DNA of 64,000 nt, taken from assembly GCA_040768985.1 (NCBI GenBank), contig JAXGLX010000002.1, positions 4,160,637 to 4,224,636 on the forward strand. Direction: 5' to 3'. This DNA comes from Acidobacteriota bacterium (GTDB taxonomy: Bacteria; Acidobacteriota; JAAYUB01). The first letter of the stretch is position 1. Each line of letters starts with the position of its first letter. Below are positions 2,185-31,058 of the stretch, one piece after another. Both the position numbers and the translations under genes were made by a program. The notes beneath the pieces are model-generated. The model had not been told where the DNA came from, searched no databases, and was given only the letters and a program-made list of their open reading frames with translations.

Positions 2185-2988
2185 TCACAGTTCAATTGTT
2201 TCCAGCACCTTCTCGTTGTAATTGCCGCCCAGGCAGACGGCGGCGATCCCCTCAATGTTGACACGGACCCCGGCATGCGAATGGCCGCAGAAGACATGGG
2301 TCACCCGCGGATGCCGGCGGATGGCCGCACCGAGGCGGGGGCTGCCCATGAAGGCGTTGCCGAACCGCCAGACGGGATCGGGTTTGCGGACCAGCAATTC
2401 GGGAAAAGGGATGTGGTGGGTGACGACGACCACCGCATTCACCGAGTCCGGCAGACCGGCCAGTTGGGCATCCAGGCGCCGGCAACAGCGGTCAGTGAAC
2501 TCCGGATCCGTCAGCGGCCAACGGATGTAATGCCGGTCCAGCCACTGGAACCGGCCGGGAATCCAACGCTGTCGATACCAGTCGTCGGGGCAGCCCAGTG
2601 ATTCATCCCGGTAAGAGTAATCGTACCAGCCCACGTTGCCGACGACGGCCACGGCACCATCGATGTACGGGGCGGCGTCCAGGTAGTGCACGCCGTGGCG
2701 GGCGCAGACAGCCGGGATGTATTCCTCGTACAGCTGCAGAGAATCGCCGTGGCGTGTCCACAAGTCGTGGTTGCCGGGTGTGTATAGGATCTGCCCGGCA
2801 CAGCCGGCGAGCGACCGGAAGGCGGCGTCCAGGTTTTGTTCGGCGAACGAAATCAGGTCGCCGGCCAGGACCAGCCGCTGGACGCCCTCCCGGGCCAGGC
2901 GGTCGAGGAAGTGAGCCAAGGGGTGGCGCCACAGGCGGATCAGGTCCAGGTGCAGGTCGTTGGTGAGGGTGAGTCGGCAGCGCGTCAT
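2185..2988 (-). CDS. Calcineurin-like metallophosphoesterase
   Basis: GNHD and GHSH motifs (LYTPGNHDLW, FCGHSHAGV), and DLHLD near the N-terminus. The ATG at 2988 (MTRCRLTLTNDLHL) is preferred over the track start at 3021 because a GGGAAGGG RBS lies about 8 nt upstream. Confidence 0.7.
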   Translation of the reverse strand: MTRCRLTLTNDLHLDLIRLWRHPLAHFLDRLAREGVQRLVLAGDLISFAEQNLDAAFRSLAGCAGQILYTPGNHDLWTRHGDSLQLYEEYIPAVCARHGVHYLDAAPYIDGAVAVVGNVGWYDYSYRDESLGCPDDWYRQRWIPGRFQWLDRHYIRWPLTDPEFTDRCCRRLDAQLAGLPDSVNAVVVVTHHIPFPELLVRKPDPVWRFGNAFMGSPRLGAAIRRHPRVTHVFCGHSHAGVRVNIEGIAAVCLGGNYNEKVLETIEL

Positions 2989-3137
2989 GGCCAAACCCTT
3001 CCCGGAGGAGGCCTGCGGCATCTATACCATGCGCGGGACCCGCGCCCAAGCAAAATCGATTGCGGGCGTTCGGGCCTGTGCTACAATGAGGTCAAATTGC
3101 CGGTAGACTTGTATTCAGGACTGTTCAAGGAGGCCAT

Positions 3138-4787
3138 ATGTCGCAGCGCGGGTGCGTTATCGCCCTTCTGTTGGTGCTGGCGCTATGCGTGCCGGTCGAC
3201 GCCGCCGACGAGCGGGCGCGTGAGAAGAATATCTTGACCGTCAAGCCGGGCGTGGTCATGGTGTACTCGCGGATCCAGGTCAAGGTGGGGATCCGGACGA
3301 ACGAGGGCCTGCGGGAGTTTGATCCTCTCGACATGAGCGGATCCGGCTCCGGGTTCATCGTCAACCCGGACGGTTACATCGTCACCAACGGCCACGTGGT
3401 CAAGGAATATCACAGCAAGGAAAACAACGCGCTCAAGTCCCAGGCGCTGGTGCAGATCCTCGAACAGCACGTCTTTCCGGCGTTGGAGCAGCAGAAACGC
3501 GCTCCGTTGACCCAGGAGGAGAAAGTGTCGGTGTTCCAGCAGCTCTCCTCCGCGGCGGTGTTTCAGGTGTCCAAGCAGTTGTTTGTCTTCCTGTCGAACT
3601 GGCAGTACCTGCCCGCCGAGATCAAGCAGTACAGTCCGCCCATCACGCCGGTGGCGGGCAAGACCGAGGGGATCTTCAGCTACGAGGAGGCGGAGTCGGG
3701 CAAGGACATCGCCGTACTCAAAATCGAGTCCGGCAACCTGCCCACGGTGCCGCTGGGCGACTCCGCGGCGGTGTCCCTCCAGGCGGCGGTGTTCCCCGCC
3801 GGCTACCCCGGCGTGGTCAGCCAGCACGATTACCTGAGCCAGTCCTCCATGCTGGAGGCCTCCATCACCTCGGGCCATGTGTCCAGCCTGAAGCTGGACG
3901 TCAAGGGCACGCCGGTGATCCAGTTTGACGCCCCGGTCACGTGGGGCAATTCGGGCGGCCCGGTATTCAACGAACGGGGCGAGGTCATCGGCATCGCCAC
4001 GTTCATCAGCCTGGCCCCCACGGGCGCCCAGAGCGCCATCCCCATCCAGGGCTTCAATTTCGCCGTTCCCATCAATACGGCCAAGGAATTCATCAGCGCC
4101 GCCGGCATCCAGTCGAAGCGCGGGCTGCTCGACGGTCTGTGGCAACAGGCGCTGGACTTCTACTTCGACGAGGACTACGAGGCGGCGGTCGTCAAGTGCG
4201 ACGAGATCCTCCGCCTGATGCCCAACCAGCCGGATGCCAAGCGGATCCAGGTGAAGAGCCAGGAGTGGCTCACCGCCCATCCGCCCACCTTCTTCAGCCG
4301 GTACGGCACGATCCTGGCGGTCGTGGGCGGCGCCCTGCTGCTGGTGGTCATCGTCGGCGCGGTGGTGATCCTGGCGGCGCGCGGCAAGAAAGGCGCCCCG
4401 GCGGCACCGCGGCCGGCCGCCGGCGTCCCGGAGATGAAGGCCACCGTGGTCGACATCCAGGCGCAGCGCCAGCAGGTGGGCAGCTTCGGCCGGGTGGTCT
4501 GCGAGAAAGGTCCCGGCGCCGGCAAGGTGACGGAGATCCCGTCCAAGGGGCTGGTGTTCGGCCGCGACGCGTCCCAGTGCACGGTGGTGGTCCCGGACGA
4601 CCACGTGTCCAAGGTGCACGCGCTGCTCACCCCCAGTCCCAAAGGCCTCCTGCTGGAGGACCGCGGGTCCACGAACGGGACGTTCATCAACGACGTCAAC
4701 AGCCCGCGGGTCCAGCAGAACTTCGTCAAGAGCGGCGACCGGATCATCCTGGGCAGCAAGCAGGCGGCCATCTTCCGGGTGGAGTGA
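3138..4787 (+). CDS. Secreted trypsin-like (S1/DegP-type) serine protease fused via one TM helix to a C-terminal cytoplasmic FHA domain
   Basis: AAGGAGG RBS 5 nt upstream of the ATG. Signal peptide (LLVLALCVPVDAADE). Catalytic His (VTNGHVV), Asp (DIAVLKIE) and Ser (GNSGGPVFN). An approximately 100-aa insertion between His and Asp, and no PDZ domain. TM helix ILAVVGGALLLVVIVGAVVILAA. Canonical FHA signature in the last approximately 95 aa (GRDASQC..SKVHALL...EDRGSTNGTFIND). Confidence 0.8.
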   Translation: MSQRGCVIALLLVLALCVPVDAADERAREKNILTVKPGVVMVYSRIQVKVGIRTNEGLREFDPLDMSGSGSGFIVNPDGYIVTNGHVVKEYHSKENNALKSQALVQILEQHVFPALEQQKRAPLTQEEKVSVFQQLSSAAVFQVSKQLFVFLSNWQYLPAEIKQYSPPITPVAGKTEGIFSYEEAESGKDIAVLKIESGNLPTVPLGDSAAVSLQAAVFPAGYPGVVSQHDYLSQSSMLEASITSGHVSSLKLDVKGTPVIQFDAPVTWGNSGGPVFNERGEVIGIATFISLAPTGAQSAIPIQGFNFAVPINTAKEFISAAGIQSKRGLLDGLWQQALDFYFDEDYEAAVVKCDEILRLMPNQPDAKRIQVKSQEWLTAHPPTFFSRYGTILAVVGGALLLVVIVGAVVILAARGKKGAPAAPRPAAGVPEMKATVVDIQAQRQQVGSFGRVVCEKGPGAGKVTEIPSKGLVFGRDASQCTVVVPDDHVSKVHALLTPSPKGLLLEDRGSTNGTFINDVNSPRVQQNFVKSGDRIILGSKQAAIFRVE

Positions 4788-4820: not shown

Positions 4821-5411
4821 ATGTTGAAATTCTGTGCGCACGGACATCCGATGGAAGAGTGGATGACCGAGTGTCCGTACTGCGCCCGCACCGAAGACGG
4901 CGTGCAGAAACCGCTCGGCAGCTCCACCCCGCCTCCCGTTCCGGCCGCGGGCCCGACCGAACTCGGCCCCGGTTCGCCGCTGCGGGCGACGGTGGTGGAT
5001 GGCTATACGGCGCATTACCGGACGCCGCCGGGCGCGACGGTGGCGGATGGCGTGTCCTTCGACGCGACGCCCACACGGCCGCTCACGCCGCCCCCCGGAC
5101 GCCCGTCCGGCGGTCTCCCCCTGCTGGGCTGGCTGGTGGTCATGAACGGCCCGGCCAAGTTTCAGGACGTGCGTCTCGACCGCGAGCAGGTGGTGATCGG
5201 CTCAGACCCCGGCGCCGGGTTGCGGCTCGATGCGGCGGGGGTGGCGCCGTGCCACGGGCGGGTGGTCAAAGAGCGGGACGGCCTGTACCTCGAGGGGGTG
5301 GACGGAGCCGTGTTCGTCAACAACGGCGCCCGGCCGTCGCCCCGCCATCTGCTGGCGGACGAGGATCTGATCCGCATCGGCAGCGTCTACGTGAAATTCC
5401 GAAAATTGTGA
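4821..5411 (+). CDS. Zinc-ribbon plus FHA-domain protein with a divergent FHA
   Basis: N-terminal C..H..(x10)..CPYC zinc-ribbon-like motif, then a Pro-rich linker. The C-terminal FHA-like fold (VVIGSDPGAGLRLDAAGVAPCHGRVVKERDGLYLEGVDGAVFVNNGAR) lacks the canonical S-T-N-G phospho-threonine-contacting residues. Confidence 0.65.
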   Translation: MLKFCAHGHPMEEWMTECPYCARTEDGVQKPLGSSTPPPVPAAGPTELGPGSPLRATVVDGYTAHYRTPPGATVADGVSFDATPTRPLTPPPGRPSGGLPLLGWLVVMNGPAKFQDVRLDREQVVIGSDPGAGLRLDAAGVAPCHGRVVKERDGLYLEGVDGAVFVNNGARPSPRHLLADEDLIRIGSVYVKFRKL

Positions 5412-5424
5412 TCGGGGGCGTCTC

Positions 5425-7542
5425 ATGATCGGCCAAGTCATCGACCACTATAAGATCCTTGAAAAAATCGGCCAGGGCGGCATGGGCACGGTCTTCAAGG
5501 CGGTGGACATCAACCTCGACCGTATCGTCGCCATCAAGGTCCTGTCGAAGGAGCTGTCCCAGGAGGCCAGCCTGATCCAGCGGTTCCTCGCGGAGGCCAA
5601 GACCCAGGCCCAGCTCAACCACCCCAACGTGTGCACCCTCTACAATTTTTTCCGCCATCAGGACCAGTTGTACATGGTGATGGAATACATCGAGGGGATG
5701 AACCTGGAGCAGATGATCCGCCAGCGGGGAGCGATCCCCTTCCACGAAGCCGTGCCGCTTTTCCAGCAGGCGCTGTTCGGCCTGAGCCAGGCCCATCGGA
5801 TGGGCATCCTGCACCGGGACATCAAGCCGTCGAACATGATCGTGAACCGGCAGGGCATCGTCAAGGTCATGGACTTCGGCATCGCCCGGGTGATGGGCCA
5901 GTCGCGGCTCACCCAGACCGGCCTGCAGGTGGGCACCCTGTACTACATGTCGCCGGAGCAGATCCAGGGGAAGGAGACCGACTTCCGGTGCGACATCTAC
6001 GCGCTGGGCATCACGCTCTTCGAACTGCTCACCGGGACGGTGCCGTTCCGGGGGAGCACCGATTTCGAGATCATGCAGGCCCACGTGCGGACGCCGCCGC
6101 CCGCGCCCTCCAAAGTGCTGCCGCAGTTGCCTAAGGTGTTCGACCGGGTGGTCCTGCACGCCCTGGAAAAGGACCCGCGCGCCCGCTACCAGACCGTCGA
6201 GGATTTCTCGCAGGCGCTGGGCGCGGCGCTGCAGGAGGCCCTCCGCACGGCGCCGCCACCCCGCGCCACCGCCGCCTATGCCGCCACGGGCGCGGCGCCG
6301 CTGCGTCCGGCGGGGACACCGCCCCCGCCGCCGGGCACCCAGGCGTACGCTTCCGGAACGCAAGCCTGTCCGCCGGGCACCCAGGCCTACCCCGCCGGGA
6401 CGCAGGCGTATGCCGGGGGCACCCAGGCGTACCCGTCCGGCACCCAGGGCGTCCAGATGCCCGGCGCCACCGTTTTTGACTCACGGCCGGGTACCGGATA
6501 CGCCGCCGCGCGGCCGGACGTCGCCAAAAAGAAAATGCTGATCATCGGCGGCATTGCCGCCGCCGGATTGATCCTCGTGACGCTGACGATCGTGGTGCTG
6601 GCGGTGTTGCTCAAGCCGTCGCCCAGGACGCCGACCGCCGCGACCCCGGTGGCCGGCGGCGGCTCCAGCGGCACCCAGGCCCCGCCGGTGGCGCCCCCCG
6701 CGTCCCTGCCGGCCGCCAGCCCGTCATCGAGCCAGCCGGCCGGCACGCTCACGCTCCCCGTGCTCCCCGGTGGCGCGACGCAGCCGGACAAGGGGCGGAA
6801 AGATTCCAAGCCGCAGCCGGCGCCGCCGACTCCGCCGCCGGCGGAGGAGCCGCCCGATTCCGGCAAATGGGCAACCAAGGGCGATCATTCCGGATCGGGC
6901 GGACAAGCGCCCGTGGAAGATCCGCTGCAGGCGTTGTCCACCCAGGCCTACCAGGCGTATTCCGAGGGACGATTCATCGAACCGCCCGGGAACAACGTGC
7001 TGCAACTCACCGGGGAGATCCTCCGGCGCGATCCCGGCCACGCGTATGCCCTGCAGCTGCAGCAGGACGCCGTCTCCGTGGTCCACGGCCAGTTGCAGTC
7101 GCAGATCGACTCGGGCGATCTGGCGTCCGCCAAGCGCCTCTGCCGGCTGCTGATGCAGTTTTTTCCCGGTAACGGCGATTACCGGCAACTGATGAGCAAC
7201 CTGGAGAACGCGGAGCAGCAGGCCGCCGCCATGAGCGAGGCGCAGACGTTCCTCGTGGGCCACGACCACAGCGGCGACTTCACGCTGTTCTGCGTCGGCT
7301 ACCTGTCCATCTTCCCCGACCGGGTGGTCTATCGAACGATCCGCTCCATCGACGGCCGCACGGATGACTTCGAGGTGCCGCGCTCGGCCATCAAGGAATT
7401 CAAGACCAACCGGTTGCCCATCGGCATGTACCGGGCGTTCCATATCAAGCTCACGAACGGAAACAATTTCAATTTTGCCCACATCGATCAGAACGGCAAC
7501 GACATCGGCCCCGAGGCGGTGGTGTCGGCGTACGGCTATTGA
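5425..7542 (+). CDS. Receptor-type Hanks Ser/Thr protein kinase: cytoplasmic kinase domain, six G-T-Q-A-Y tandem repeats, one TM helix, and an extracytoplasmic Pro-rich region plus a helical/TPR-like and unknown C-terminal domain
   Basis: Glycine loop GQGGMGTVFKA, VAIK lysine, HRDIKPSNMI catalytic loop, DFGIAR, SPEQ. Repeats PGTQAYASGTQACPPGTQAYPAGTQAYAGGTQAYPSGTQG at aa 303-342. TM helix LIIGGIAAAGLILVTLTIVVLAVLL. Confidence 0.85.
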   Translation: MIGQVIDHYKILEKIGQGGMGTVFKAVDINLDRIVAIKVLSKELSQEASLIQRFLAEAKTQAQLNHPNVCTLYNFFRHQDQLYMVMEYIEGMNLEQMIRQRGAIPFHEAVPLFQQALFGLSQAHRMGILHRDIKPSNMIVNRQGIVKVMDFGIARVMGQSRLTQTGLQVGTLYYMSPEQIQGKETDFRCDIYALGITLFELLTGTVPFRGSTDFEIMQAHVRTPPPAPSKVLPQLPKVFDRVVLHALEKDPRARYQTVEDFSQALGAALQEALRTAPPPRATAAYAATGAAPLRPAGTPPPPPGTQAYASGTQACPPGTQAYPAGTQAYAGGTQAYPSGTQGVQMPGATVFDSRPGTGYAAARPDVAKKKMLIIGGIAAAGLILVTLTIVVLAVLLKPSPRTPTAATPVAGGGSSGTQAPPVAPPASLPAASPSSSQPAGTLTLPVLPGGATQPDKGRKDSKPQPAPPTPPPAEEPPDSGKWATKGDHSGSGGQAPVEDPLQALSTQAYQAYSEGRFIEPPGNNVLQLTGEILRRDPGHAYALQLQQDAVSVVHGQLQSQIDSGDLASAKRLCRLLMQFFPGNGDYRQLMSNLENAEQQAAAMSEAQTFLVGHDHSGDFTLFCVGYLSIFPDRVVYRTIRSIDGRTDDFEVPRSAIKEFKTNRLPIGMYRAFHIKLTNGNNFNFAHIDQNGNDIGPEAVVSAYGY
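6331..6451 (+). repeat. In-frame tandem 15-nt coding repeats (ggcacccaggcgtac-like) encoding six G-T-Q-A-Y units in the kinase juxtamembrane linker
   Basis: Repetition visible at both the DNA and protein level, with no frame disruption. Confidence 0.75.
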
Positions 7543-7629: not shown

Positions 7630-9138
7630 ATGAAGCGCAGAACCGTATGGACGACTGTCGGCTCGATCCTCCTGGCGGCGGCTCTGCTCGCGATCCAGAT
7701 CCCGGCCGCCGACTGCACCATGGTGGGCGCCACCGGGCGCGCCACCCGCGACGGCGTGACCATCCTGGGCAAGAACCGCGATTACCCCGTCAACTCCGGC
7801 CAGATCCTCCACTTTCAGCCGGACGGGGAACACCCCGCGGGCGCCACGACGGCGATGCAGTTCATCACCATCGCGGCCGCTCGCCAGACCTGGCAGCTGC
7901 TCGGTTTCAAATCCATGGACGAGCGGAACCGGGACGACCGGCTGTGGCGCTGGGGTGTGGGGATGGGCATGAACCGCCACCAGGTGAGCGTGGCCAACAA
8001 CGACGGCAACACCTGGGACACCTTCGACGGGCCGGCCCTCCACGACAACGACATCACCCGCCTGATCCTGGAGCGCTGCCGCACCGCCCGGGAGGCGGTG
8101 GACCTGGTGGACGAGCTCATCGCCCGCCATCACAGCCGGGTCCCCGAAATCTACACCGTCGCCGATCCCGCCGAGATCTGGATCATCGAGACCACCGGCA
8201 ACCGCTGGGCGGCCGTCCGCGTGACTGACGGCGTCTGCGTGCGGGCCAACCGGTTCGAGATCACCGACCCCGACCTGCCCGACGATTCGGACCGGTTCCG
8301 GCTGCGCCGCCGCGAGCTCATCGAGCACGCCCGCGCCCGGGGGCAGTACCGCGAGGAAAACGGGCGGTTCAGCTTCCGGCTCTCGTACAGCAGGGACTAT
8401 CACGGCCCGGACAACACCCATTACAACGAGATGCGCTACCGCCGGGGCATGGAGCGGATGCGGCTCATCGAGGGGCGGGTCACGGTGGAGGGGGTCGCCG
8501 CCGTGCTCCGGGATCACTTCGAGGACTGGACGTTCGACACCGCCGACGGACGCGCCATCCGGCCGCACACGCCGGGCGCCGACCCCCACTGCGCGATGAC
8601 CGGCTCCCTGCTGGACGGGGCCCCGGTGCGCACCATCTGTTACGGCGGCACCGTGGGTTCGATGATCGCCGTTTCCCAACCCGGCGCGGCCGCCGGCTTG
8701 GGCGGCACCCTGTGGGCTTGCCTGCACCTGCCTTGCCTCAACGCGTACGTCCCGTTCTTCCCGGCGCTGGCTAACCGGCTTCCGGCGGAACTGACCCGCG
8801 CGGGCGGCGCGTACGAGCAGGAGTCGCTGTGGTGGCGTCTGGCCGCCGTGTCGCGGAACCTGGAGGCGCGCTGGGCGGAATCGGGCCAGGCGATCAGCCG
8901 GATCCGCGCCCACTGGGCCAAGCTGGAACGAAAGGAGCTGAAGGAGTGGCGGGAAATCCGCCGGCGCGCCGACGCGCTGGCGCGGCAAGGCAAGGCGGAC
9001 AAGGCCCGGCGGCTGCTCGCCGACTTTAACGCCCGGTGCGTCCGGCGCCTGAGCCGGGGAGCGGACCAGGTGGCGCGCTGGGTGCCCGGCTTCGACGCCG
9101 CGGCTCCGCCACCGGCGTTTTTCGAGCGGCGGTACTAA
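7630..9138 (+). CDS. Secreted Ntn-hydrolase, peptidase C69-like (dipeptidase family)
   Basis: Signal peptide, then a mature N-terminus ...AADCTMVGATGRATRDGVTILGKNRDYP. This matches the C69 pattern CT..(V/L)G.....DGS....ARN.D with an N-terminal nucleophile Cys. Length is about 500 aa. Confidence 0.5.
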   Translation: MKRRTVWTTVGSILLAAALLAIQIPAADCTMVGATGRATRDGVTILGKNRDYPVNSGQILHFQPDGEHPAGATTAMQFITIAAARQTWQLLGFKSMDERNRDDRLWRWGVGMGMNRHQVSVANNDGNTWDTFDGPALHDNDITRLILERCRTAREAVDLVDELIARHHSRVPEIYTVADPAEIWIIETTGNRWAAVRVTDGVCVRANRFEITDPDLPDDSDRFRLRRRELIEHARARGQYREENGRFSFRLSYSRDYHGPDNTHYNEMRYRRGMERMRLIEGRVTVEGVAAVLRDHFEDWTFDTADGRAIRPHTPGADPHCAMTGSLLDGAPVRTICYGGTVGSMIAVSQPGAAAGLGGTLWACLHLPCLNAYVPFFPALANRLPAELTRAGGAYEQESLWWRLAAVSRNLEARWAESGQAISRIRAHWAKLERKELKEWREIRRRADALARQGKADKARRLLADFNARCVRRLSRGADQVARWVPGFDAAAPPPAFFERRY

Positions 9139-10871
9139 TCGGCCGGCCCGGTCCCGGCATCATCCCCACTGAACGGGAAGGCGAGCACCAGCATCCGGCC
9201 GTCGGTGACCAGGTCGTCGCCGGTGGCGTTCCTGGCGGCGCGCGGAAGGTCCGGCCGCTCCAGCCAGCAGACGCCCCGGGGCAGCTCCGTGAACATGAGA
9301 TCGGCGGCGATCTTGTCCCGTTCCCGGTCGATGTGGGGATCGATCTTGTGGTACCAGGACAGGCCGGCCTTCTCCGCCCCGATGCCCACGTCGTGGGTGG
9401 CCGCGGCCAGCCAGGCCGTTTCGCCGCTGACAGGTTCCGGCAGCTTCCAGATCCGGACATGGTGCCGCTTGGCGAAGGTGTTGAGCTGTTTCTGAAACAC
9501 CAGGTCGGGCGGCCGCCCGCCCATCAGGAACGTGGCCACCGGCGCCGTCGAGTAACCCTTCTGTCGCAGGACGGCGAAAAACGTCTTGGCGCCGGAGACC
9601 ATCCCCGTTTTTTCCGCCGGAGTCCAGCCCGCGGCTTCGAAGCTCTGCTGCAATTGTTCGGCGGTTCCGAACAGCGCGATGTTGACGCAGTCGCCGGGAC
9701 GGCCGTCGGCGGACTCGGTGCGGGCGGGGCCGTCGCGGAGCTGCGCGGCGGCCGCGTCGTCGAGCATCAGCTCCGGCCAGGGCGTGACCCCGGCGGGCGG
9801 CTTGAAACGGGCGGGGAGCTGGACCTGGACGGTGAGCTCGGTGCCGGCGGGGTAGTCGATTTCCCGATGATACGTGCGGCCGAAGGCGTACATGGCGCTG
9901 TCGAAGGCGTAGCCCACCGCCGGGTACAGCTTGCCGAGCATGTGGAATCCCATTGAGATGCGGCTGGCGGTGCTGTGCGGGTAGGCGATGCCGATGATCA
10001 GACCATCGCGGACCGTCTCGCGCGCGTTATCCACCGACAGCAGCCGGGTCGTCAGGCCCAGGTGCGAGCCGTCCGGCAGGATCAGGTCGCCCAGATCCAG
10101 CATGAGATTGGCCCGGTCGTAGGCGTCGCGGCACTTCTGGGTGCGCAGCACGGTCCCGCGGATGCGGGTGCCGGCGCTGACCACGGTCTGTCCGTTCACC
10201 GTCACCGGCGCGCAGATGACGCCTTCGACCAGGTCGCCGGCGCGCGACCGGGCGCTGCCGACGGCCGAGGTCAGCCGGATGTCCAGGTTGGTCCCGATGG
10301 GGATGCCGGCTTCCAACAGGGCGCGGAGCCGCGCCATGTCGCCGGCGGCGCTCGCGGCTTCGAGCTGCGCCACCTGCTCCGCCAGGCGCTGGGCGATGGT
10401 GTTGGTCTCGCGACCTTCCGCCCCGTTTTCCAACAGCAGGTCCTGGATGGTCTCGTACGGCGCGTACCCCTCGTAATCCAGCGGCGTGTTCCCGAACACG
10501 TCCCGGCAGTTGGGGTCCGCGCCATGGCGCAGCAGATGCTCCATGACCTCGATACCGCGCTCCTGCTCGGCCCGGCGACCGGCGGTGCTCGCGGTGATCA
10601 CCGCCCAGTGCAGGACGTTGCGGCCCAGGTCGTCCCGTTCATCGACCGTGGCGTCGCGGTCCAGGAGCGAGTCCGCGCGGTTCAGGCGGAGCTTGATTTC
10701 CGCCGGCTTGACCGCGCGGGCGGCGGCGGTCAGCTCCGCCAGCACCGAAGTGGGCGGGGGGAGAGTGTCCTTGCCGCCGGCAACTGTCAGCATCAGCGCC
10801 AGCCAGAGGCAGGCGAGAGCCGGCCCGCGCCGCGGCCGGGAAAGCGCCGACAAAATAATGACGTGTCGCAT
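9135..10871 (-). CDS. Secreted ankyrin-repeat protein with an LssY-like C-terminal domain
   Basis: GGAAGGTG RBS upstream of the ATG at 10871. Signal/TM LACLWLALMLTVAG. At least two ankyrin repeats (DLGRNVLHWAV...LLRHGADPNCRDVFGNTPLDY). The C-terminal 150 aa (CVNIALFGTAEQLQQSFEAAGW...TFAKRHHVRIWKLP...) resemble the LssY_C family. Confidence 0.45.
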   Translation of the reverse strand: MRHVIILSALSRPRRGPALACLWLALMLTVAGGKDTLPPPTSVLAELTAAARAVKPAEIKLRLNRADSLLDRDATVDERDDLGRNVLHWAVITASTAGRRAEQERGIEVMEHLLRHGADPNCRDVFGNTPLDYEGYAPYETIQDLLLENGAEGRETNTIAQRLAEQVAQLEAASAAGDMARLRALLEAGIPIGTNLDIRLTSAVGSARSRAGDLVEGVICAPVTVNGQTVVSAGTRIRGTVLRTQKCRDAYDRANLMLDLGDLILPDGSHLGLTTRLLSVDNARETVRDGLIIGIAYPHSTASRISMGFHMLGKLYPAVGYAFDSAMYAFGRTYHREIDYPAGTELTVQVQLPARFKPPAGVTPWPELMLDDAAAAQLRDGPARTESADGRPGDCVNIALFGTAEQLQQSFEAAGWTPAEKTGMVSGAKTFFAVLRQKGYSTAPVATFLMGGRPPDLVFQKQLNTFAKRHHVRIWKLPEPVSGETAWLAAATHDVGIGAEKAGLSWYHKIDPHIDRERDKIAADLMFTELPRGVCWLERPDLPRAARNATGDDLVTDGRMLVLAFPFSGDDAGTGPAD

Positions 10872-28351: not shown

Positions 28352-30385
28352 TCAGTTCTGCGGACGGGCGGCGGCCTTCAGCTCCTCGAACAGGGCGGCG
28401 GCGGAGGGATAGCGGAGCTGGCGGTCTTTCTCGAGGCATTTCAGGACGATTCGCTCCAGTTCGACGGGGAGCGACGGGTTGTAGGACCGGATCGGCACGG
28501 GCGGGGTGACCAGATGGTGGTGCAGGATGCCGTCCACGGGGTAGGGCAGCATGCCGGTGAGCATCTCGTGAAAGGTGATCCCGAACGAATAGATGTCGCA
28601 GCGCTCGTCTACGGGTGAGCCCTGCAACTGCTCCGGCGAGATGTACTTGGGGGTGCCCATGACCACGTCGGACGATTGGCCGGGCAGTTCGTGGAAGAGG
28701 CGGGCGATGCCGAAATCGGTGAGCTTGACGATCTTGTCGTCGCTGAGCATGATGTTGGCCGGCTTGATGTCCTGGTGGATGACGCCGTTGCGGTGAGCAT
28801 AGGACAAGGCCTGCAGCATGTGCCGGGCGACGTATAGGGACAGCTTCAGCGACAGGGCGCCTTTGACCTCGAGCAGCCGCTCGACGGTGGTGCCGCGGAT
28901 GAACTCCATCACGATGAAGTAGGCGTTATCGGCCTTGATGATGTCGTGGATGGCCACGATGTTGGGATGGTTAAGCTTGGCGATGGCCTTGGCCTCCGAA
29001 AAGAAGGCCTGCAGGCGGGCCGGATCCCGGGAGACCGTCACGGGCAGCTTTTTCAGGGCGACGGTGCGGTCGAGGATCTTGTCGCGCGCGCTGTAGACGA
29101 TGCCGGCGCCGCCGCGGCCGATTTCCTCCAGCTCGGTGTAGCGCTCCCCCAGCCGGATCAGAAAATCGTCCGACAGCCCGGCGTCCTTGGCGGCGGCATC
29201 CTGGTCCAGCATCGCTTTCATCGAATCGGGCTCGCTGGTCTTGTGGTCGATCGCGTCGATACGCTCGTCGACGTTCATGAAAAACGGCCGGAGACTCTGC
29301 ACCCGCGCGAACACGTCGCGGGCATGCTTGAGCCGGCCGAGTTTCTCGAGACAGAGGCCCATCTGAAAAAATTCTTCCAGGTTGGCGTCGGCGGGTTTCA
29401 CCCGCTTGAAGTACTCGACGTAGTGTTTCAGCGATTCCTGGTAGCGCTCGCTGTGGAAGTGAAGCCGGGCCATGATCACCAGGCTGTCGGTGTACTGCTT
29501 GTGATCGGCGGTGATCCTGGACAGGATTTTCAGCGCCGCCTCGGTCTCCCCCGCGGCCAGCAGCAATTCCGCCGCCCGGATGAAGTTGCCCCCCTGCGTG
29601 TAGTGCTGCACCGCTCCGGGAATGTCCCGGGCGGTTTCGCAGAAGGCGGCCGCCTTCAGCGGCAGACCCAACTGGTCGGCCAGCTGGACGATCTTCTGGC
29701 AGCGCTCCCGGAGCTGCTCCGGCGGATAGAGACTCTGGAGGTCGCGCAGGTGCGTTTCGTGGCACGCCAGCGCGCTCGCCTTGTCGTCGGCCTTCTGATA
29801 GTACTTGGCGGCCTTTTCCCATTCCTGCCGCTGGTAGAAGTACTGGCCCGCCGCGGCGTACGCCCGGCGCGCCTGTTCCGGCTGGCCCATCTCCTCGTAC
29901 AGCTCGCCGGCGCGGGCGAGGCTTTCGTCGCCCAGGCGCTCCAGCATGCGCGCCGCCATGTGGTACTGGCGGCGCTGGCGGTAGATTTCCGCCGCCCGGT
30001 CCCACCGGCCGATCTGCTTGTACACGCGCAGGGCCTGACGAAGTCTGCCTTCCCGCATCAGCGTGTCCGCTTGCAGCTCGAGCGGCAGGTGACGGAGGTG
30101 CTCGTCCCGACCCGACAGGAGGACGTATTCCAGATAGAAACAGATGGCGGTCAACACCAGCGATCCGATGAACAGCAGGCTCGGGTGAACCGATTCGCGC
30201 AATTGGATGAGCCAGAGGGCGGCCCCGGCCAGGGTCGACCGGCTGAGCACTCCGAGAAAGGAATCGAAAATGTCCCTTAACAGCGCGACGGAGAATGCCA
30301 GCGTGATGCTGTACAGCAACAGGAAGATCGACACCATGAACAGGATGGTGACGACGACTACCAATAGGTGATGCTTGAATCTCAT
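28352..30385 (-). CDS. Ser/Thr protein kinase with N-terminal membrane anchor (2 TM helices), central TPR repeats and a C-terminal Hanks kinase domain
   Basis: TM segments ([19 protein letters not shown]; [19 protein letters not shown]). TPR-like helical repeats. Kinase motifs [45 protein letters not shown]. Confidence 0.85.
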
Positions 30386-30413
30386 CGGTTCATCACGCCG
30401 GACTGTGCGGCGG

Positions 30414-31058
30414 TCAGTATTTCAGCCCGGTCAGCAGTCGGATGTAGCCGCGCATATAATACCATGCCCGAAAATCGGCGAACCGGTAATCGGCGAGAAT
30501 GGTGCGCCAGTCGCGGGCGATGAAATCCCGGGCCGGCTCGCATTCGAACCGTTGGAACAGCTGCCGCGCCAGGGGATTGAAGGTGGCCAGGTCGCGTTCG
30601 TTCCAGTCGAGGATGCACAGGCAGCTGTCCTCGGCCAAAAACTCGCCGGCGTTCTGGATGACCAGAATGCGCTGGTATTGTTCGAGTCCGTGCAGGACAA
30701 AGGAAATCAGGACCCGGTCGAAACGCCCGGCGAGGTCAAGCGGACCCTCGATGCGCCGGTCCAGCAGTTCCAGGTTGGGAAATTTCGCGGCCCGTCGCCG
30801 GAAACGGTCCTGCATCTCCGGGCCGATCTCGACGCCGACGATCCGGCCCGCGGGTCCGGTCCGCCGGGCCATCAGGGCGGCCAACCGGCCGGTTCCCGCG
30901 CCCAGGTCGAGGATCCGCTCGCCGGGCCGGATGGCCAGGTCGTCCATCACCCGCTGCAGGAAACGACGGTAGTAGCCGGCGCAGGCCAGGTCCAGCAACC
31001 GGTCGTAATGGCGGGCCGCGAAGCCGGTGAGTTCAATTTTGGGTTTTCGCGTCACCAT
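30414..31058 (-). CDS. Class I SAM-dependent methyltransferase
   Basis: Motif I ILDLGAGTGRLAALMA. The internal ATG at 31058 is used because the track start (TTG at 31112) overlaps tRNA-Ala. Confidence 0.65.
   Translation of the reverse strand: MVTRKPKIELTGFAARHYDRLLDLACAGYYRRFLQRVMDDLAIRPGERILDLGAGTGRLAALMARRTGPAGRIVGVEIGPEMQDRFRRRAAKFPNLELLDRRIEGPLDLAGRFDRVLISFVLHGLEQYQRILVIQNAGEFLAEDSCLCILDWNERDLATFNPLARQLFQRFECEPARDFIARDWRTILADYRFADFRAWYYMRGYIRLLTGLKY

Follow-up and report, generated by a model that had tools for sequence, protein, structure and literature searches.

Tandem G-T-Q-A-Y heptads as candidate phospho-acceptor sites in the juxtamembrane linker of an Acidobacteriota Hanks-type kinase encoded with FHA-domain proteins

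Docking of FHA domains on phosphorylated, disordered segments of kinases is a known principle. In Mycobacterium tuberculosis, the phosphorylated linker of PknB is bound by the FHA domain of FhaA (Rv0020c). Disordered, autophosphorylated Thr residues of PknG recruit the FHA substrate GarA/OdhI, whose ETTS motif is then phosphorylated. The disordered linkers of StkP and PrkC carry seven and three phosphothreonine (pThr) residues, respectively, and the role of such long juxtamembrane segments in bacterial Hanks kinases is debated (2025 work on StkP and PrkC). Outside bacteria, the FHA domain of RNF8 prefers pTxxY/F and reads the TQXF cluster of MDC1, which includes a TQAF and is kept in multiple copies in all vertebrate orthologues; the FHA domains of Pellino1/2 behave likewise. 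Here we describe a locus in a 64,000-nucleotide stretch (the window) of an Acidobacteriota bacterium (assembly GCA_040768985.1, contig JAXGLX010000002.1, positions 4,160,637 to 4,224,636). It encodes a protease-transmembrane-FHA protein (gene 1), a zinc-ribbon-FHA protein (gene 2) and a receptor-type Hanks kinase (gene 3), whose linker contains six tandem heptads of the form x-x-G-T-Q-A-Y. This array is most likely a lineage-specific, slippage-expanded set of candidate phospho-acceptor motifs within the kinase's disordered cytoplasmic linker.

The locus shares with PknB-FhaA a receptor-type Hanks kinase, a T-Q-T activation loop, FHA proteins in the same operon and a gene-1 transmembrane-FHA part that resembles FhaB/FipA. 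It differs from that system in having no PASTA ectodomain (353 bits against a cutoff of 450 for NF033483), in its tandem, copy-variable heptads, in the fusion of FHA to a periplasmic protease and in the absence of adjacent PP2C, RodA or PbpA genes. As in PknG-GarA, several Thr anchors (putative pThr sites here) lie in a poorly conserved disordered kinase segment, and upstream of its FHA domain the FHA protein has a conserved Thr motif of its own, ETTSVF in GarA and K-A-T-V-V-D here. PknG is, however, soluble, with N-terminal and non-tandem sites. In the present locus, the kinase has as partners a protease-FHA protein of the membrane and a zinc-ribbon protein whose FHA fold is degenerate. StkP and PrkC also have a Thr-bearing disordered linker, a conserved kinase-proximal Thr and lysines beside the transmembrane helix, but streptococci lack FHA proteins, the PrkC site serves trans-autoactivation, and neither linker consists of repeats, nor is copy-number variation known for either.

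MDC1 resembles the array in its disordered cluster of T-Q-x-aromatic motifs, one of them T-Q-A-F, for which reading of phospho-Thr by FHA is known. There is no homology, however, and MDC1 is a eukaryotic nuclear protein, phosphorylated by ATM, a phosphatidylinositol 3-kinase-related kinase (PIKK), and its motifs lie at intervals of 13-33 residues, not in strict heptads. Rv1747 offers the sequence nearest to the gene-1 FHA domain (6cah, 3.4e-7) and has multivalent pThr sites in the disordered linker of a membrane protein, the corresponding sites here being putative; in Rv1747, unlike here, pThr sites and FHA domains reside in one polypeptide, with two mapped sites and no tandem repeats. What is new is the strict tandem heptad layout, its natural copy-number polymorphism, the purifying selection on its core and its setting in an unstudied Acidobacteriota cassette. 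A literature search found no paper describing such an array.

The six heptads (Table 1) read PPGTQAY, ASGTQAC, PPGTQAY, PAGTQAY, AGGTQAY and PSGTQGV, and lie on the cytoplasmic side, 25-67 residues from the membrane. The preliminary description of this DNA had reported six tandem repeats in the stretch that joins the kinase domain to the transmembrane helix, each with Tyr at position +3 of the Thr. Their number and placement, between residues 9-257 and 368-395, were borne out; Tyr at +3 is present in only four of the six, with Cys in unit 2 and GTQGV as unit 6. The same description had called the repeats near-identical 15-nt DNA units, which proved wrong: Tandem Repeats Finder gave a period of 21 with 5.8 copies plus a higher-order period of 42, the units are 52-95% identical pairwise, and the proportion of synonymous differences (pS) reaches 0.79, close to saturation. 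GTQ occurs six times in the linker; in 20,000 shuffles of this linker it averaged 0.12 occurrences and never exceeded 3, and chance is therefore excluded. Overlapping open reading frames across the array (e.g., 6131-6484 on the minus and 6278-6541 on the plus strand) were dismissed as typical high-GC artefacts; the synonymous/non-synonymous pattern follows the kinase frame.

An SQ/TQ cluster domain is defined by at least three S/T-Q motifs within 100 residues. With six T-Q motifs within 42 residues, four of them exact T-Q-A-Y, the array has the motif count of such a domain or of a TQXF-type ligand cluster. It was not accepted as a true eukaryotic DNA-damage SQ/TQ cluster targeted by the PIKKs ATM or ATR, as there is no homology and the adjoining kinase is of the Hanks type; the likeness is one of analogy.

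Comparison of the units within the window revealed strong constraint on the G-T-Q-A-Y core, with a proportion of non-synonymous differences (pN) of 0.035 and a pN/pS of 0.045, against a pN/pS of 0.66 in the two spacer codons. Across eleven 6-copy alleles, variable columns made up 1 of 30 in the core (3%), 5 of 12 in the spacers and 11 of 73 in the flanking linker (15%). All five core residues are conserved, not T and Y alone, and Ser never takes the place of the Thr. Individual units are orthologous from one lineage to another (about 90% identity), synonymous differences included. The constrained core beside drifting spacers and flanks points to an old array that is maintained at the peptide level and whose copy number still fluctuates. 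On these sequence comparisons, the core is selectively maintained as a peptide.

An identical kinase and a 90%-identity cluster are present in Acidobacteriota metagenome-assembled genomes and metagenomes. Among relatives at least 90% identical, the kinase measures 692, 705/706 or 713 residues, the full length difference falls in the array, and the heptads number 4, 6 or 7; no allele with fewer than four was seen. When 241 million metagenome records were scanned with a degenerate DNA pattern, five further instances of GTQAY-xx-GTQAY emerged, all from the same kinase lineage, with 7, 6, 6, 6 and 4 copies; a sixth match (L015) was junk low-complexity sequence. In the 7-copy allele two adjacent units are identical in DNA, which indicates a fresh 21-nt duplication, and the DNA identity of units 1 and 3 would explain how the 4-copy allele arose, by a loss of 42 nt. 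The copy-number variation that the preliminary description expected from slippage was thus found among relatives. Since each copy-number allele occurs in several independent assemblies and sequence backgrounds, an assembly artefact appears unlikely. A phase-variable contingency locus was also rejected: with a unit of 21 nt, all length differences between alleles are multiples of 21 nt, and the reading frame is never shifted, so the array is not an on/off switch.

Table 1. Positions in the window of the cassette genes and of the domains and motifs discussed in the text.
Feature	Position	Strand	Support
Gene 3, Hanks-type Ser/Thr kinase, 705 residues: kinase domain, disordered linker, transmembrane helix, disordered stalk, folded ectodomain	5425..7542	+	Pkinase 4.5e-59; AlphaFold2 (AF2) model
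Activation loop L-T-Q-T-G	5908..5922	+	Aligns with T-Q-T of M. tuberculosis PknB and S. aureus PknB (PDB alignments)
Predicted intrinsically disordered cytoplasmic juxtamembrane linker, residues 278-366	6256..6522	+	Predicted local distance difference test (pLDDT) <50
R-A-T-A-A-Y, kinase-proximal motif with Thr282	6262..6279	+	Position conserved in orthologues
Tandem 21-nt (7-residue) units x-x-G-T-Q-A-Y, n = 6, residues 302-343	6328..6453	+	Repeat, unit and allele comparisons
G-A-T-V-F-D, linker motif closest to K-A-T-V-V-D (candidate pT-x-x-D), just past the array	6463..6480	+	Invariant in 17 of 17 close variants
Transmembrane helix, residues 368-395, preceded by AKKK	6526..6609	+	AF2 helix; KKK on the cytoplasmic side
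Folded extracytoplasmic domain made up of a helical repeat and a beta domain	6922..7539	+	pLDDT ~90; conserved in orthologues
Gene 1, 549 residues: signal peptide, periplasmic trypsin/HtrA-like protease, transmembrane helix (residues 389-414), cytoplasmic canonical FHA	3138..4787	+	Trypsin_2 6e-25, FHA 6e-14 (Pfam)
K-A-T-V-V-D of gene 1, 13 residues ahead of FHA strand 1, candidate phospho-acceptor/FHA ligand (pT-x-x-D)	4437..4454	+	[KR]ATVVD conserved
Canonical FHA domain of gene 1, residues 473-539	4554..4754	+	G-R, S-K-V-H and S-T-N-G present
Gene 2, 196 residues: zinc ribbon (CxxGH...CPYC), disordered linker, degenerate FHA-like beta-sandwich	4821..5411	+	Pfam; AF2
Two A-T-V-x-D motifs in the gene-2 disordered linker: RATVVD (4983-5000) and GATVAD (5031-5048), with DGYT[AE]x[YF] between	4983..5048	+	Orthologue conservation

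The kinase matched Pkinase (PF00069) over residues 9-257 with 200.4 bits against a cutoff of 31.7 (4.5e-59), and its catalytic motifs are intact: VAIK (residues 35-38), HRDIKPSN (130-137), DFG (150-152) and LTQTG (162-166). The profile match, the catalytic residues and the alignment with PknB structures identify it as a Hanks-type kinase. Assignment to the PASTA kinases (PknB/Stk1/PrkC/StkP) was rejected, as the sub-cutoff NF033483 match is limited to residues 7-301 and the ectodomain contains no PASTA. Defence kinases (PADLOC PD-T4-6, mad6/MADS, BREX PglW; NCBIfam) were likewise set aside; their matches cover essentially the catalytic domain, a few run past it into low-complexity linker sequence, and the gene is not accompanied by defence partners.

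In the AF2 model, built with 17 homologues, a confident kinase domain is followed by a segment with pLDDT below 50 (residues 278-366), a helix (368-395), disorder (396-497) and a confident fold (500-705). The AKKK ahead of the helix places kinase and linker inside and the C-terminal domain outside, and hence the array in the cytoplasmic juxtamembrane linker. The composition of this linker is A25 P17 G14 T12 Q9 Y6 S4, that is, 12 Thr against 3-4 Ser. Its predicted disorder and Thr-rich composition are those of a juxtamembrane docking region of the PknB-FhaA type. Close to the kinase domain, Thr282 matches the position of the conserved phosphosite of the PrkC intrinsically disordered region (IDR), Thr290; pairwise alignment with PknB structures stops before the linker, so equivalence of Thr282 to PrkC Thr290 or PknB Thr294 rests on position only. 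We also observed that the activation loop reads TQT in the window clade, where the linker reads TQAY, and T[RK]T in other orthologues, where T-V-x-x predominates among the linker motifs. This coincidence of T-Q in loop and linker is a single evolutionary event and gives only a hint that the +1 preference of the kinase and the linker motif changed together.

Full-length orthologues, 47-63% identical, contain no GTQAY; instead, two to five related Thr motifs occupy the same linker, in the absence of DNA-level repeats. Examples are PGATVAYQ (twice) and PGATVAA in L004, PGATAAYQ (twice) in P0004, LGQTVA (twice) in L005, RPTQAY in L007, GATVQA, GATVAA and PGATVFAP (twice) in L011, and ARTVAY, PGTTGAY and GPTAMY in L009. 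The first motif past the kinase domain is conserved in position, as RATAAY in the window and KKTVAF, KPTVIF, ARTVAY, RPTQAY or APTAAY elsewhere. Over ten orthologues, Thr and Ser number 92:20 in the kinase linkers against 86:154 in the extracellular linkers, an odds ratio of 8.2. The orthologues thus retain the linker Thr, not the Gln or Tyr. Enrichment of T..[YF] was significant in the window clade, P0003, P0004 and P0006.

Gene 1 encodes the best candidate for a reader of these sites. Its NCBIfam matches are DegP/HtrA-like, the resemblance of its transmembrane-FHA part to FhaB/FipA (7e-15) lies below cutoff, and RGKKG after the transmembrane helix fits the positive-inside rule. The FHA domain scored 52.7 bits against a cutoff of 20.7 (PF00498) and aligns with PDB FHA domains of Rv1747 (the 6cah match given above), CEP170 and Rv0020c. 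All phosphate-binding residues are kept, with FGRD, SKVH and STNG present, as in a canonical pThr-binding FHA domain to judge from sequence.

The FHA match of gene 2 is marginal (21.1 bits against 20.7), next to one to Yop-YscD_cpl (2.5e-6), and no PDB sequence match was found. Its AF2 model comprises a sandwich at residues 100-196 (pLDDT ~97) behind a disordered stretch (28-90), and hhalign relates the fold to the gene-1 FHA domain with a probability of 97.6%. The protein has IGS in place of GR, APCH in place of SxxH and no STNG, and so does not show the residues of a canonical pThr-binding FHA domain. The phosphate-binding Arg is missing from the whole zinc-ribbon-FHA family except P0155, and the window sub-clade has additionally lost the Ser of SxxH and the Asn/STNG loop. 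The preliminary description had proposed both adjacent FHA proteins as readers of the array. Two FHA-type genes do lie directly upstream on the same strand, but only gene 1 keeps the canonical residues; because gene 2 lacks the Arg, Ser and Asn for phosphate binding, only one plausible pThr reader is left.

A second Thr motif is shared by the cassette proteins. In gene 1, K-A-T-V-V-D is invariant as [KR]ATVVD across orthologues 62-92% identical (ATTVD or ATVVE in two cases), while its flanks vary. The gene-2 motifs are kept as L[KR][AP]TV[VIM]DG[YFQH]T...TV/I/M-x-D in the close zinc-ribbon-FHA orthologues P0140-P0154, not in the most divergent, P0155; more distant family members carry R-K-T-V-V-L about 12 residues upstream of the fold. 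In the six-frame open reading frames of at least 60 residues in the window (94,554 residues), ATV.D has four occurrences, each of them within a disordered cytoplasmic linker of one of the three cassette proteins. K-A-T-V-V-D is likely the core phospho-motif of the cassette system.

The reading we favour joins these elements into one chain: autophosphorylation of the linker, recruitment of FHA and phosphorylation of K-A-T-V-V-D. The active kinase would trans-autophosphorylate its T-Q-T activation loop and the linker Thr, namely Thr282, the one Thr in each of the six heptads and that of GATVFD. Up to eight pThr, 25-95 residues from the membrane, would then recruit the canonical FHA domain of the co-encoded protease-transmembrane-FHA protein; this domain would be held about 45 residues off the membrane, on the side where the array lies. 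Several weak sites in a row would raise local avidity, and a heptad number of 4, 6 or 7 would tune the valency. Once docked, the kinase may phosphorylate the K-A-T-V-V-D of both FHA proteins, following the PknG/PknB-GarA scheme of recruitment, substrate phosphorylation and FHA rebinding; the zinc-ribbon-FHA protein would more likely be a substrate or adaptor than a pThr reader. We give this full chain, which is our own reconstruction, a probability of roughly 0.45.

Several observations weigh against it. Orthologues differ hardly at all in the gene-1 FHA domain, yet their linker motif shifts (TQAY, TVAY, TVFA, TVAT); as the high-affinity ligand of this domain, pT-V-V-D would therefore be a better candidate than the linker motifs. 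At -2 the heptads have no basic residue, unlike the first linker motif and KATVVD. The T..[YF] enrichment is absent in the more distant P0005 and P0007-P0011, and pT-x-x-Y was rejected as a family-wide rule, the aromatic +3 residue not being conserved in more distant orthologues. The gene-2 FHA domain is degenerate, no PP2C was found in the window or in close loci, and in PrkC linker phosphorylation serves kinase activation rather than docking. Judged by sequence, the motifs of the kinase linker vary more and may be weaker sites that act together.

A first rival explanation keeps the autophosphorylation of the heptad Thr and has them act on the kinase itself, either as extra copies of an IDR phosphosite that add gain to trans-autoactivation or positive feedback, as with PrkC Thr290, or as a scaffold for partners other than FHA proteins, as in StkP. 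In line with this, the first motif, R-A-T-A-A-Y, has T-x-A-Y in common with the heptads, the juxtamembrane IDR phosphosite of PrkC is required for trans-autoactivation, the phospho-linker of StkP functions in the absence of any FHA protein, and the T-Q-T loop is found in exactly the clade with the T-Q linker motif. The kinase is, however, always co-encoded with FHA proteins, and the array and the FHA domain lie close to the membrane on one and the same side. As a sole explanation it seems to us unlikely, if worth serious attention, and autoregulation and docking are not mutually exclusive.

Alternatively, the heptads could form an array of non-phosphorylated short linear motifs or "stickers", in which the Tyr/Gln/Pro-rich units cluster the kinase or bind another partner independently of phosphorylation. 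Such a role would account for the conservation of the whole core beyond T and Y, and it suits a disordered linker rich in A, P, G, Q and Y; FHA modules such as that of Rv1747 can phase-separate even when unphosphorylated. Against this stand the absence of any Thr-to-Ser change, the selectively Thr-rich linkers of all orthologues, the loss of Gln and Tyr where Thr is kept, and the pThr-signalling genomic context, so that we hold a phosphorylation-independent role to be very improbable. An equally poor prospect is a neutral low-complexity spacer, a GC-rich repeat expanding and contracting by slippage in which only linker length or flexibility matters: in-frame copy-number changes are tolerated, the exact tandem GTQAY-xx-GTQAY is confined to this lineage in the metagenome records scanned and the exact length of the StkP linker is reported to be non-critical for activation, but the core pN/pS is very low despite near-saturated synonymous divergence between units, the units are individually orthologous between lineages, the core varies far less than the flanking linker, related Thr motifs recur in orthologues that have no DNA repeats, and every allele has at least four units.

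The docking chain could also be carried further, to a bacterial scaffold comparable to a C-terminal domain (CTD-like) with tunable valency, in which 4, 6 or 7 pThr-Q-A-Y sites set a threshold of avidity, clustering or condensation for capture of the protease-FHA protein. We consider this extension improbable. If it were true, signalling gain would be a heritable and rapidly evolvable trait written in repeat number.

No Pfam family was detected in the kinase ectodomain at E<=0.1. Its invariant residues fall within FLVxHDHxG...FCxG and NFNFAHID. A fifth T-Q-A-Y (LSTQAYQAY) lies at 6997-7008 (residues 525-528), at the start of the extracytoplasmic folded domain; as orthologues read AAHQAY or SAQQAF at this site, it is probably coincidental.

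The three genes are separated by gaps of 33 and 13 nt, with the kinase last, and no convincing internal promoter or terminator and no Rfam family were found in the region. Among orthologous loci the cassette is kept together amid differing flanking genes. In L011 (5360-9197) a protease-FHA gene and a kinase gene are separated by a 67-nt gap with no zinc-ribbon-FHA gene between them. In relatives 36-37% identical, the operon also encodes a PP2C phosphatase, together with one or two additional Hanks kinases (one of them FHA-fused), which places the system firmly within pThr signalling. These distant cassettes lie at 1487-8211 in L018 and 1312-10001 in L019, where 2900-4465 encodes a kinase-transmembrane-FHA fusion; their first linker motif reads R-x-T-V-[LV]-E.

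A Metallophos phosphoesterase gene (2185-3021, minus strand) is divergent from the cassette and resembles TIGR03729 ("putative phosphoesterase" subfamily) below cutoff; a Metallophos gene also adjoins the cassette in L001 and lies farther off in L009. The sub-cutoff match gives no support for a role as protein phosphatase. A second Hanks kinase (28355-30421, minus strand) has the reverse layout, with N-terminal hydrophobic segments, TPR repeats and a C-terminal kinase domain, and bears no Thr array. The remaining flanks encode a beta-propeller protein (22-2172), a C69 dipeptidase (7630-9138) and an ankyrin plus LssY_C protein (9135-10871, minus strand). The first, of the Reg_prop/Y_Y_Y type, has no output domain; it closes with a transmembrane helix and an Ala/Gly-rich tail. 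The latter two genes stay beside the cassette only in the closest relatives.

The locus offers a natural case in which putative phosphosites are set out in a regular, number-variable array beside a co-encoded FHA reader. With natural alleles of 4, 6 and 7 sites, short peptides and a small canonical FHA domain, it is a clean system for the question of valency in FHA recruitment. It also points to a conserved Acidobacteriota cassette by which pThr signalling in the cytoplasm is connected with a periplasmic protease.

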